The notes: generated from the letters alone by a model not told the origin. A DNA stretch of 62,233 bases, filler included, from Sphacelaria rigidula (GCA_964200075.2; 8 parts of 8 records of this genome joined end to end with filler, not necessarily neighbours in it), one strand, 5' to 3'. Positions 7,898-55,088 are shown, counted from the first letter of the whole stretch. Numbers and translations are program-made.

Positions 7898-8270
7898 GTG
7901 CAGGATAGCAAGAAACCCAGGTTAACACTTCCGAGATACGTCCGAAACGGGGGACGGGAATGCTGAGAAACCGAGCTGAATGAACTGTTGGCTTCATACT
8001 ACAGTAGATCACAAAAACAAAATGCACCCCGTTGACAACATTTCAGGACCCAAAAAGAGTGAAATCCGGGGTGTTATTGAGGGGGGTGTTGTTGTATGAG
8101 ACTAGCTTGTACAAGGAATCCCTTGTTGTATGAGCTCATGGGATTAGCTCACACAAGGAACAGAGGGGTTCCAGGAGGATCGGCATGTCGGCGTATTCAA
8201 GAAACACAGTACTATAGTGCGGCACCGGTTTCAAGGAGAGCAGAAGGAGGTGAAGGGGTGGGGGGGGGGG

Positions 8271-8297
8271 CGTACTCATTTGTTGCTTGCCTTAGTC
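8271..8297 (-). mobile_element. 27-bp 5'-truncated copy of the poly(C)-ended LINE with 15-bp TSD
   Basis: cgtactcatttgttgcttgccttagtc flanked by AGGGGTGGGGGGGGG at 8254-8268 (plus 2 extra G) and at 8298-8312. Confidence 0.8.
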
Positions 8298-8853
8298 AGG
8301 GGTGGGGGGGGGCGCATGATGCCTCGTATCGGAACAAAAATGAAACGATACATGCCGGCCTAATCTCTTCAATATCGTCAAGATTTTCATGTTTATTTCA
8401 GTTCGACATCACCAAGAATTCGCTGGAAAATGACTAGTTTGTGGTCAACAGGTTGTTCCAACATCAAATTTGGATACCTAGTTGCAAATCTCGATGGAAA
8501 TGGTATTAAAATAAATATTTGCGCGAGGTTCCGTTGGATTGCTTGCACAAACCGAGACCAGCTTGTCGAACACCACGGAATAGAACAATACTGGCGTTCA
8601 AGCTTGTTTTATCGTATACGGGGTGTTGAGGCATTCGGGCTAAAAATAACTTACTTTTACTCGATAAGACACCAACGTAAGCCCCCGAAATAATTCCCAA
8701 AAAACAAGAAAACGATAATTCTGCATAGAGAGGGAGCGGGTTCGGGCCGAGTTGACTCAACCTGAGTAACAACACGTACTGTGGAGAAGAAAAGAAAAAA
8801 CTGCGGGAAACACATGCGTGGTGATTGGAGACGGTTGGACCGAAGGGGCTGAC

Positions 8854-8934
8854 CTTGAGTAGCGTGGGAACAACTCCCGCCCGTACGAGGTAGTGAAGCG
8901 CCCCCACACAGTGAGCGTACGAACTCAGTGTACC
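8854..8934 (-). CDS. Terminal nucleotidyltransferase (Cid1/TUTase/non-canonical PAP family), exon
   Basis: aag|GTLSSYAHCVGALHYLVRAGVVPTLLK|gtcagc; GTLSSY is the conserved family motif; 81 nt, phase 0/0. Confidence 0.85.
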
Positions 8935-10373
8935 CTTTCAGTGTCCGTAGGCCCATGTAGAGGCAATAACGTGCGAATACGAACAAAGCGAATAAAGGGA
9001 CACATTAGTTGGACGGCGTATTCAGATCAACACAGAAACATGTAGATACAAAAACACATATATGTAGATATTTCGGCATACTCTCGGAGCCTTCTCATGC
9101 GATACTGTAGTGTCTGCCTACTCGTGATGAGATTTCCGAACTGTTGCCTACGTGTCTAGGTGGCAACTTCCAATTTCGTTCATCACGCACATACCCTAGA
9201 ACAAAAAATTGGTCGAACGTGGTGATTTTCTGGTACTCCGTAATCCCTATATCACGAGGGTCCGAACCGCAGCAGATAGACATATCGACGGGGTTTCAGG
9301 AGTAATATCTTATTCCCACCGTTAGAAACGCTGGGAATCGTGCAGTAAGAACAGGCTGTGTAACGAGAATGGACGTGGTGCGGGGGATATTGATGCTATT
9401 CGCGATAATAAATGTGAAAGGCGTGTTTTGGGGAAGAAAATGACTAATGCCCCGAGACCATGGACTGTTCCTGAGTAAGGAAAGAGGTTAAAAGGGGAAG
9501 GGAAATAAAAAATGGCGATCGACCGCCGGCAGCACGAAGGGTATCTTCATTTGAGAAAGAAACGCCCGGAACACGGCCAAAGCTACGTGTGTAGTGCGGA
9601 AAATGGAGCTGCTTGTATCGACTACAACAGAGGAGAGAGATCGTCAGATGCCGCTGTAGCTACACAGCGCTGTGGCGTGTGAACAGATGCTGTCCACGAC
9701 GGCAACAGACAGACTCGAAGATCTGCGAGGGAGACAATATATGAGACACTTTGGATTTTTGTTGGAGACATTGCCTGATGGAGCATATCGAATCAAAATT
9801 ATTTATAGATGAACTATACAGTGACCTTCGTGTCAGCAAAACAGTTTTTTTCTGTTCTGGCGTGGGTTCTGGTAACATAAGCGGGAAAAAATCAGCATAA
9901 TCAAGCCCACATATAGATACACGGCAATTTCACCACGTGGCACATGACGGGGATGAACTTCTCAAACAATAAACCGAAAAATCGAAAATACCAAAACAAG
10001 GGAAATAAGCTCTTAATCGGCGTGTTTTGCAATAAATTTATTTCAGCACGTTACGTTTGTGCACGTTTCTTCTTTTCGTCCGTTCAGTTTGCCTTCCAAT
10101 CCGCTCGAGTTTTCCTTGTATCACGTAGCAAGCATTGGTGGCGCTGTTGACTTTTGTTGTTTGCGTCCACTATTGCCAACAGGGCTGGATTCGTGACCGA
10201 TCAATTGGTTGATTAAACCATCGACCGATCAATGAAACGATCAACTGATCAATCAACCATTCAGCATTTTCAACAGTTTGACAGTCACACGAACGACTGA
10301 TCAACCAACCAACGAAAAGACTCAGGGGATCGAGGAATTACAGGGTCAAACAGTGCGTGAGAATGGTCATCAC

Positions 10374-10448
10374 CCGAGCGGAATCGTTGACACCCCTTGC
10401 TTTCGCCCAGGCCTTCACCAGGTACAGCACTCTATGGCAGCGAGGATC
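10374..10448 (-). CDS. Terminal nucleotidyltransferase, exon
   Basis: ttttttcag|DPRCHRVLYLVKAWAKARGVNDSAR|gtgatg; matches DPRxxxLxxxVKxWAKxRGxND; 75 nt, phase 0/0. Confidence 0.87.
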
Positions 10449-53028: not shown

Positions 53029-53491
53029 CAACATCAACATTTTCCCACGTATGCAGCCCACATCTTCCTTACAACGCCATGAATTCAGTTCAAACTTTAC
53101 ACGGACACTGTATGGGATGAGAAGAACAGTCCACTCAAATTTCCCAGGATTCAGAGGCCTGCTGGCCAAGGTCGGGGCGTCCAGGGTGAGGGAAGTGGGC
53201 ACTGTTGTGGGGTCATTTTTTGAGCGCTGTTGGCTCAGGGCGAACGGCGTCGCCGCTCATTTTGAGCTCTTACTGTTGAGGTGAACAGCCTTTTCACTGT
53301 AGTCTGCAGTACTGACAAACCATGGTACAAAGGTACCTGTCTTTCCTCGACATTGTCAGTTACATGCGGTGGGATTTGATACCATAGTAGACGTATGTCT
53401 TGTACTTACGTTCGCAATGTCTGGTTGGGAGGCTCTGCTTGTCATGGTGTTGGGGTAGCCACACCCAGTCACTTCCTTCTCTTTGCCTTGC

Positions 53492-54281
53492 CTGGCTACA
53501 TAATACTATTCCTCTACAACCTGATCGGCTCCGCCGTGTCCTATAACCGACTTCACCAGTTGTGTCCTCCTGTTCCGGTGTACGGATCACGAATCACGAA
53601 ACACTCTAGAGCACACGTGATTCAACCAACGGCGTGTGGTCCTCAACACCGATCAAGATGGCAGAACAACGAGACATGCCCATCCCCACAATTTCGGGTG
53701 GACACGACACATCATCAACGACCGAGGTCATGGAGCTGAGAGGAGCTGTGGGAATGATCACCCAGCAGCTAGCTGAGATACAGACAGCGATGTCTCGATT
53801 AGTGCGCGAGACACCGCCTGCGGGCGCAGAGGGGGAGTCAAGTGACGGGCTGCACACCGTCACAGATATGGGAGCAACAGCGGCTCCTCTGCAACAGCGG
53901 CTCCTGCATCTGTGACGGTGTGCAGCCCGTCACTTGACTCCCCCTCTGCACCCGCAGGCGGAGTCTCGCGCACTAATCGAGACATCGCTGTCTGTATCAG
54001 CTAGCTGCTGGGTGATCATTCCCACAGCTCCTCTCAGCTTCATGACCTCGGTCGTTGATGATGTGTCGTGTCCACCCGAAATTGTGGGGATGGGCATGTC
54101 TCGTTGTTCTGCCATCTTGATCGGTGTTGAGGACCACAAGCCGTTGGTTGAATCACGTGTGCTCTAGAGTGTTCCGTGATTCGTGATCCGTACACCGGAA
54201 CAGGAGGACACAACTGATGAAGTCGGTTGTAGGACACGGCGGAGCCGATCAGGTTGTAGAGGAATAGTATTATGTAGCCAG
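53492..54281. repeat. Near-perfect inverted duplication (arms 53492-53867 and 53908-54281, 40-nt loop) of a retroelement-like 5' region
   Basis: Arms are reverse complements with about 8 differences; both encode MAEQRDMPIPTISGGHDTSSTTEVM. Confidence 0.92.
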
Positions 54282-54442
54282 ACAAAGTGTGTAACAGGAA
54301 GCAAAGATGCGAAAGATACAGATGACTGTTGAGATGTGAATCTTTGTGGAAAGTTTTTTTTTTTTTTTTTTTTTTTATATCTGTGCGTGGGGTAGGTATC
54401 ACTATATTTCTTATATGTGGTATTTCATGCAATTCTTGTTAT

Positions 54443-54542
54443 NNNNNNNNNNNNNNNNNNNNNNNNNNNNNNNNNNNNNNNNNNNNTTAATTAATTAANN
54501 NNNNNNNNNNNNNNNNNNNNNNNNNNNNNNNNNNNNNNNNNN
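54443..54542. other. Artificial 100-bp scaffold linker
   Basis: Same structure. Confidence 0.97.
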
Positions 54543-55088
54543 GCCATTTTTCGTACCTTTCCTACGCAAAAAACGAGAAGGTATACCTTTTCTAGGCCAT
54601 TGCCCGAAAATAAATATGCCTCCCCTCGTATCCCTCGGGTGGGGGACCTGGACATGCCATAAAGAAAAAAGAGATTTACCAGTAGTCGAGTGGGGGAGGA
54701 AGTAGGTGCACGAAATTGCGTCTGTGGGAAAGCAGTAGAGAGCAGGAGTCATAGAGGGGGGAAAATGGGAACTTTACAAGAAGTAACGGGACGTGCTAGA
54801 AGGAGAAATGCGGAACGTGAACGAAGATGGCATGAAATCGTTTGATGCAGTAGACAGTAGTGAGAAAACGATGGCTTTACTGGGAGAGAGATGGTGGACA
54901 CAGACGGCGAAACAGGACGGGGATACGATATGTAAAAATGTTTTTGTGCGATGTATGGAAGAAACGTAATGAGCGCCGGAATGTTGGAGGTGGCTTTATT
55001 AGGAGAAGGAACGGTGCTCCGTCTCGAAAGGGATGCGTGGTCAATCGTCAGACGACCAAGACGAGCAACAAATGAGTATGCCCCCCCC
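54543..55088 (+). mobile_element. Longest copy of the poly(C)-ended non-LTR retrotransposon: decayed ORF2 C-terminus
   Basis: Translates with frameshifts to NCVCGKAVESRSH (decayed CCHC knuckle) ... RDVLEGEM ... TMALLGERWWTQTAKQDGD ... FLCDVWKKRNE ... TTKTSNK*, then gtatg and C8. Confidence 0.75.

Follow-up and report, generated by a model that had tools for sequence, protein, structure and literature searches.

Copies of a C-tailed repeat in the Sphacelaria window

We analyzed a 62,233-base stretch of DNA from Sphacelaria rigidula (GCA_964200075.2), hereafter the window, which consists of eight unlinked pieces of ~7692 bp each, joined by N44-TTAATTAATTAA-N44 linkers and eukaryotic by content. 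The window contains seven copies of a repeat that is an autonomous long interspersed nuclear element (LINE) of the apurinic-endonuclease-like (APE) type, at least 5.15 kb in length, with a single open reading frame (ORF) of ~1380 amino acids (aa). The copies are spread over four of the eight pieces and share the constant 3′ end ...AAATGAGTACG, which stops at the same terminal base in all seven. An earlier note on this DNA had described seven copies on four unlinked pieces that share a 3′ end and run into C without poly(A), and its coordinates and sequences proved correct.

Four contigs from outside the window were used for comparison. Three metagenome contigs (L001–L003) were retrieved by a scan with a degenerate form of the LINE 3′ end, while the fourth (L007), a contig binned into a bacterial genome, was retrieved by scanning prokaryote genome contigs for the same end. 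L007 carries an intact copy, and the bodies of the window copies were delimited by alignment to it. The bodies range from 23 nt to at least 446 nt (Table 1). The 23-nt end AAGGCAAGCAACAAATGAGTACG has six matches at three or fewer mismatches in the window compared with none in 100 shuffles, and the seventh copy (22156-22319, minus strand), which is more diverged, was found by self-BLAST.

The sequence directly 3′ of the copies reads, in window order, C11, C8, (TG)C33, C6, C7, C12 and C8. Poly(A) follows the 3′ end in none of the seven window copies and in none of L001, L002, L003 and L007. Among these 11 ends, a run of C6 to C13 starts at once in nine, C33 follows after 2 nt in one, and CCTC7 follows in one; by chance, runs of at least six C begin at ~5e-4 of strand positions in the window.

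Several copies show further detail. The C33 of the 36-nt copy at 17579-17649 is followed by degraded sequence and an N10 gap, on the other side of which lies a degraded duplicate of the copy (17746-17793). The copy at 23208-23277 begins close to where the 66-nt form described below commonly starts. In the longest copy, a remnant of a Cys-His knuckle, CVCGKAVESRSH, is located at ~54718-54753, the stop codon TGA at 55073-55075, the element end at 55080 and C8 at 55081-55088; weak protein similarity suggests that this copy reaches back to the piece start at 54543. A stretch at 18954-18978 reads ...GAGGTACGTCCTG followed by C10, like the last bases of the element and its run, and is too short to call.

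All three window copies with both ends visible are flanked by C-rich target-site duplications (TSDs) of 13-16 bp that begin with a C run, where the earlier note had claimed C-rich TSDs of 13-15 bp. The upstream TSD copies contain C9, C11 and C6, so the targets held C runs before insertion. All three have a longer C run downstream of the element than upstream, the surplus being 2, 1 and 6 C, respectively; these are the numbers of extra C that the note had given. The six C at 22150-22155 are unambiguous, because the TSD after them starts with G. The extra 2 and 1 C stand as minimum values, because the position of the nick cannot be placed within a homopolymer, and they may reflect slippage.

Beyond the C run, ATCGTAGGATG is found just past the run both at window 15649-15660 and at L002 88-103 (minus strand; 11/11, E 0.04), and the similar TCGTCGTAGCATC is found just past the run at window 31276-31288. 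The shared sequence may reflect a preferred target, a repeat common to the targets or chance. A comparison of the 3′ flanks past the run with the 5′ region of the element in L007 gave no match.

Table 1. LINE copies and their target-site duplications in the window. RT, reverse transcriptase.
Feature	Position	Strand	Identity
Eighth fragment, 58 nt, from the region just upstream of the RT domain	1-58	+	84% to L007
2 extra C (G on the plus strand), then downstream TSD CCCCCCCCCACCCCT	8254-8270	-	
5′-truncated copy of 27 nt, the last 27 nt of the element	8271-8297	-	100% to L007
Upstream TSD CCCCCCCCCACCCCT in element orientation (C9ACCCCT, 15 bp; AGGGGTG9 on the plus strand)	8298-8312	-	
Copy cut by the piece start, at least 55 nt (15586-15640), then C8	15586-15648	+	
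Copy of 36 nt (17579-17614), end variant ...GAGTACC, then TG and C33	17579-17649	+	
Downstream TSD GCCCCCTCATCCCCCT, 16 bp	22134-22149	-	
Six C between element end and TSD, the sole unambiguous tail	22150-22155	-	
Diverged copy of 164 nt	22156-22319	-	~85% to L007
Upstream TSD GCCCCCCATCCCCCT, 15 bp	22320-22334	-	
Copy cut by the piece end, at least 63 nt (23215-23277), and C7	23208-23277	-	
Upstream TSD C11TC, 13 bp	31226-31238	+	
Copy of 23 nt	31239-31261	+	
1 extra C, then downstream TSD C11TC (31263-31275)	31262-31275	+	
Longest copy, decayed, at least 446 nt	54543-55088	+	78-82% to L007/L002 over the 446 nt alignable (54635-55080)

Architecture of the full element and its 66-nt end

The intact copy in L007 has a 1382-aa stop-free frame that begins with an N-terminal region, followed by an APE endonuclease, an RT and a Cys-His knuckle. 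Specifically, the frame matches PF03372 (Exo_endo_phos, APE) at 193-415 (8e-11), PF14529 (Exo_endo_phos_2) at 302-437 (1.4e-7) and PF00078 (RVT_1) at 763-1012 (6.7e-32), and its C-terminal knuckle, CPCGKAIESRVHIVGEC, has the form CxCx8Hx4C. The location of APE and RT in one ORF, the 5′ truncation and the variable TSDs together identify the repeat as an APE-type LINE. The earlier note had taken the repeat for a LINE with an RT ORF, which the intact copy bears out, and had left the endonuclease as APE or restriction-like; the domain matches in the ORF decide for APE. L001 and L002 contain 671-aa open frames with RVT_1 and the same C-terminal end as L007.

The stop codon TGA lies inside ...AAATGAGTACG, 5 nt before the C run, so the 3′ untranslated region (UTR) consists of five nucleotides. 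This position of the stop, pointed out earlier for the longest window copy, holds there and also in L001, L002 and L007. The C run after ...GAGTACG is C8 in L001, C10 in L002, CCTC7 in L003 and C13 in L007. Upstream of the L007 frame, no second ORF of at least 100 aa is present on the same strand within 998 bp. The element occupies at least 5152 bp of L007 and reaches the contig end, where the region upstream of the ORF (4840-5259) contains imperfect direct repeats of ~70 bp that may be a repeated 5′ UTR or promoter. No Rfam match was obtained in the window at the gathering score or in L007 1-600 at E ≤1.

The bacterial label of L007 deserves comment. The LINE 3′ end occurs in the binned genome as a single copy, that of L007 itself, and a second contig of the same genome (L008) encodes, in a 754-aa open frame, a distant LINE RT with 34% identity over 107 residues. 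Eukaryotic DNA, probably algal, was binned into this genome. Scans of viral contigs with the LINE 3′ motif and with the LINE protein gave no match.

To follow the 3′ end through further genomic copies, we used sequencing runs chosen as containing window piece 2, namely X1, X4, X5 and X6, which belong to three studies. X1–X4 represent one organism, X5 is an 'algae metagenome', and the RNA nature of X6–X8 is only guessed; X1 does not count as independent support, because it may be the sample behind the window assembly. The contigs of these runs were mapped onto L001 at a likeness of at least 80%, giving 108,960 (X1), 17,410 (X4), 86,026 (X5) and 5,014 (X6) mapped contigs. The run contigs are built from short words and do not cross long homopolymers, so the tail lengths read from them are biased downward.

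Where mapped contigs extend just past the 3′ end, the consensus of their loose ends reads poly-G on the plus strand, or poly(C) in the element sense, with at least 16 C on top of the eight already in L001. Such 3′ junctions are represented by 1632+392 contigs in X1, 1449+410 in X5, 262 in X4 and 131+64+50+10 in X6. In addition, the mapped contigs reveal a favoured 5′ end at L001 752-754, which is 64-66 nt from the element 3′ end, and poly(C) at least 28 long in the element sense precedes this 5′ end in 443 (X1), 398 (X5) and 68+36 (X6) contigs. An abundant tail-only form of 66 nt is present, with poly(C) on both sides and often in head-to-tail arrays. The arrays appear as joints at which a contig goes back by 70-77 positions (from 750-757 to 681-683), which are head-to-tail 66-nt ends with a short C spacer; among the 13 entries listed, they account for at least 249 (X1), 178 (X5), 16 (X4) and 10 (X6) contigs.

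No other stretch of the element is as well conserved as the 66-nt end. Among L007, L002 and L003, this end is identical at 64/66, 63/66 and 61/66 positions, compared with 44-59/66 for the remaining 66-nt windows of L007 and L002. At the protein level, even relatives with no more than 37-40% identity retain GxVVNGxxAxA at the very C-terminus, and the ~40 residues that precede it are hypervariable. Because the ORF extends to within 5 nt of the element end, the last 66 nt of coding sequence probably double as a cis signal recognised by the RT. The conservation of this end suggests sequence-specific, or 'stringent', template recognition (the concept is set out in PMC3747384, as far as that source was covered) rather than relaxed recognition.

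Relation to described LINEs

The closest named homologues of the ORF are unnamed products of the Ectocarpus genome, with 45-73% identity, and more distant full-length relatives combine PF03372/PF14529 with PF00078. Matches in PDB (L1 ORF2p, 2e-21; R2, 8e-21) do not discriminate between clades, and the protein atlas, with generic RVT_1 clusters and one Tx1-named cluster at 0.94, is uninformative on the clade.

The most informative comparison is with the curated Ectocarpus transposable-element library ('Characterization of the transposable element landscape shaping the Ectocarpus genome', Genome Biol 2025, PMC12477816), for which we refer to the annotations in supplementary file 1. There, RTEX-1a_Ec32 is described as 'single EN-RT ORF; (C)n 3′' (5867 bp, TSD 'C-rich') and RTEX-2_Ec32 as '(C)n termini/TSD' (5582 bp, TSD 'C-rich'). 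The library also lists two short families, RTEX-N1_Ec32, which is non-autonomous, 607 bp long, 'can be present in tandem' and has a '60 bp 3′ end 83% RTEX-1_Ec32/RTEX-2_Ec32', and RTEX-N2_Ec32, of 188 bp. RTE-X is the most abundant LINE group in Ectocarpus (16,418 copies, 3.41% of the genome) and, in the annotations covered, the only one noted with a (C)n end (PMC12477816); the RTE families RTE-1/2_Ec32 (4.0-4.6 kb) end in (CAA)n, and CRE-1_Ec32 ends in (CA)n.

The present element shares with RTEX-1/2_Ec32, as annotated, the single EN-RT ORF, the (C)n 3′ end and the C-rich TSDs. The sizes are 5.5-5.9 kb for the Ectocarpus families and at least 5.15 kb here, counted up to the contig end. According to the same annotations, the RTEX families share their ~60-bp 3′ end with short, very abundant and sometimes tandem families; here, the 66-nt module is abundant, with poly(C) on both sides and in head-to-tail joints, and no family that joins it to an unrelated 5′ head was isolated. 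The two differ in host and in family, with at most 73% protein identity to the Ectocarpus copies, the RTEX entries being compared by their annotation notes. We conclude that the element is probably of the RTE-X type.

These entries bear on the earlier note in two ways. Its central claim, a C run in the place of poly(A) together with insertion into C-rich sites, is borne out in the window, in the four outside contigs and in thousands of junction contigs. The note, which knew of no described example, had named a Repbase or Dfam entry with this behaviour as removing novelty; by that yardstick novelty fails, since RTEX-1a_Ec32 and RTEX-2_Ec32 are curated entries annotated with (C)n ends and C-rich TSDs. 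The main text of PMC12477816 has no match for 'C-rich', with the limit that '(C)n' itself is not searchable, and the passages covered offer no tail mechanism. Likewise, we found no published discussion of a C-tailed LINE or of its mechanism, with the limit that 'poly(C)' could not be queried, so that such text may be missed. A Blepharisma paper matching 'poly-C' deals with a DNA transposon and its inverted repeat, and has no bearing here. In a kelp genome paper, as far as it was covered, automatic classification yielded LINEs of the Jockey, RTE (including an RTEX-1), L1 and CRE groups.

Other LINE systems resemble the element in part. L1, for which PMC3812793, in the part covered, quotes the consensus target 5′-TTAAAA-3′, likewise combines a homopolymer tail complementary to a homopolymer of the nicked strand with an APE endonuclease, 5′ truncation and variable TSDs that start with the tail base. 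In contrast to L1, the present element uses C/G instead of A/T, has one ORF instead of two and almost no 3′ UTR, and its tail cannot come from polyadenylation. Membership of the L1 clade is rejected, as poly(A) is absent from 11 of 11 ends and a single ORF replaces ORF1 and ORF2. The microsatellite-targeting APE LINEs Waldo (ACAY), Mino (AC), Kibi (TC), Koshi (TTC) and Dong (TAA), named in a 2013 review (PMC3812793), also insert into simple repeats and so end up flanked by them, whereas the present element goes into mononucleotide C/G runs or C-rich stretches, a target used by none of the families named in that review, in the part covered. The RTE clade proper, represented by RTE-1/2_Ec32 as annotated, shares the single EN-RT ORF, the lack of poly(A) and a simple-repeat 3′ end, but the present element differs by its (C)n instead of (CAA)n end, its greater length and its C-terminal Cys-His knuckle; the (C)n end and the length of at least 5.15 kb place it outside that clade as it is known from Ectocarpus.

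Insertion into C/G tracts and the surrounding window

Taken together, we consider it likely that the repeat is an autonomous RTE-X-type LINE whose RNA carries an oligo(C) that pairs with the nicked G strand of C/G-rich targets. In such a mechanism, the endonuclease would place a first nick in the G strand, at or within the run of a C/G-rich target, and the exposed 3′ G run would pair with a short oligo(C) after ...GAGTACG (RNA ...GUACG), which would most simply be transcribed from the donor copy's own C run. Reverse transcription would begin at the paired G/C site, a second nick 13-16 bp away would produce the C-rich TSDs, and early termination would leave 5′-truncated copies, with the 66-nt form favoured. 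Because every copy carries a C run, the tails of earlier copies would serve as targets for later ones, and head-to-tail arrays would build up. The G-strand nick, the C tail of the RNA, the pairing step and the transcription of the C from the donor run are the parts of this mechanism that we infer.

Several points weigh against this reading. The oligo(C) on the element RNA is putative, and TSDs are readable for three copies only. The extra 2 and 1 C could have arisen by homopolymer slippage, leaving 22150-22155 as the one unambiguous tail. The loose-end evidence is a consensus of short-word contigs and is possibly biased. A search of L007 for the 5′ end and the TSD of a full-length element found neither. 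The RTE-X assignment is based on shared features and Ectocarpus homologues, not on an RT phylogeny with references. Furthermore, the 3′-terminal RNA folds no better than shuffled sequences (z -0.34 and -0.09), so the proposed cis element is without structural support.

Among the alternatives, the one that survives best is that the 66-nt units and arrays spread mainly at the DNA level, as a satellite derived from the LINE tail, by unequal exchange or replication slippage, with retrotransposition in a minor role. Head-to-tail joints with a period of ~70-77 are common, and the Ectocarpus family that shares its tail with RTEX elements 'can be present in tandem' (PMC12477816, as annotated), both as a satellite would have it. 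The isolated copies of 23, 27, 36 and 164 nt, however, include TSD-flanked ones and are true insertions, and the spacers between units differ in length and sequence, as expected for separate insertions or template jumps. We therefore regard satellite growth as unlikely to be the principal process, although it is compatible with oligo(C)-primed insertion and may well contribute.

A second alternative is that target-site specificity alone accounts for the junctions, in the manner of LINEs specific for ribosomal DNA or for microsatellites: the RNA would end in ...GAGTACG, the endonuclease would cut at the 5′ edge of C tracts, and every C would come from the target. The C9, C11 and C6 already present in the upstream TSDs agree with this, as do the pyrimidine-rich sequence that often follows the run and the possible origin of the extra 2 and 1 C by slippage. 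Such a mechanism leaves unexplained the six C at 22150-22155, which precede a TSD starting with G and have no upstream counterpart, and it fits poorly with a downstream run that is the longer one in three of three copies and with run lengths that vary widely, from C6 to C33 and beyond. We judge it improbable that specificity alone is sufficient.

Slightly less probable still is that the C run is untemplated, being added by terminal transferase activity of the RT, by slippage on one or two C or by a cellular nucleotidyl transferase acting on the RNA, with C-rich targets then selected through microhomology. We know of no poly(C) polymerase, and templated and untemplated C are not separable in these data. 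Tail length is highly variable, the window runs starting at C6 and reaching at least C33 and those of the loose ends at least 28; this speaks for untemplated addition, and so does the slippage on terminal repeats that has been proposed for other LINEs, such as UnaL2 with TGTAA (PMC3747384, in the part covered). Because every copy carries a C run, templating by the donor run is the simpler account.

Finally, an artefact of assembly or sequencing, such as poly-G reads or chimeric contigs, to which the long window C runs followed by degraded C/A-rich sequence and the N10 gaps with duplicated flanks might point, is ruled out in practice by independent assemblies, given that the same junction recurs in three metagenome contigs, one binned contig and the runs of three studies, that the TSDs are internal to contigs and that intact ORFs exist.

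Homopolymers of C/G outnumber those of A/T in the window (runs of at least 12, 10 versus 2; runs of at least 20, 5 versus 1). Examples are C30 at 38798 and G65 at 56519, and most long C/G runs are not beside a LINE end. N10 gaps at 4665-4674, 17711-17720 and 56462-56471 each lie beside a long C/G run, with degraded C/A-rich sequence after the run. The flanks of the gaps are near-duplicates (4520-4659 and 4680-4819, 17561-17653 and 17727-17813, 56362-56459 and 56557-56654) and have the look of contig ends left unmerged where the assembly failed to get past a homopolymer.

The window contains further repeats and coding sequences. A ~215-bp repeat resembling a miniature inverted-repeat transposable element, at 15665-15800, 16580-16797 and 21340-21551, has inverted ends TGTAATGCGTGAGAGGAC...GTCCTCTCACGCATTACA and internal CCCTAA-like telomere repeats, and one LINE copy adjoins it. 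The regions 53488-54285 and 34515-34951 match their own reverse complements end to end (800 bp at 94.8% and 437 bp at 85%, respectively) and are large palindromes or hairpin repeats. Another family is represented at 19466-19748 and 58156-58434 (85% over 284 bp); in piece 8, a G run of 20 nt (58431-58450) directly adjoins the start of the copy, and the other copy is preceded by a short CCCCTCCCC only. Tandem repeats with a ~82-bp period are common to 23631-23860 and 26276-26751 in piece 4. A copia-type element with RVT_2, rve and SH3_retrovirus domains occupies 39050-46650 on the minus strand, and the remaining content includes a Harbinger-type DDE fragment, a GH81 exon and an MTPAP-like exon.

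The combination of a C tail and C-rich targets is not new, having already been catalogued for Ectocarpus, and the value of the present analysis therefore lies in its confirmation in a second host and in sequence-level detail. This detail, comprising the anatomy of the TSDs, the 5-nt 3′ UTR, the conserved 66-nt module and the tail arrays, is apparently not spelled out in print. Pairing of the oligo(C) with the G strand, which the note had put forward, is a plausible mechanism that fits the data, and it too is apparently undiscussed in print.

More tentatively, and with somewhat less than an even chance of being correct, we propose that the (C)n end is functional in brown-algal RTE-X LINEs at large, which would choose their targets by pairing of RNA oligo(C), templated by the donor run, with the nicked G strand and, through insertion into one another's tails, would seed and lengthen C/G homopolymers and 66-nt arrays. 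If this is true, these LINEs would be a natural C/G counterpart of the A/T system of L1. What is known of the cooperation between LINE tail and target stems almost wholly from L1, with its A/T pair, or from elements with microsatellite tails, and a highly active, C-tailed lineage that targets the G strand would provide an independent natural test of whether tail pairing, endonuclease preference or both direct insertion. The element would also bear on how a tail is kept up without polyadenylation, and elements of this kind account for the breaks of brown-algal assemblies at long C/G runs and for the high frequency of these runs and of short tail arrays in such genomes.

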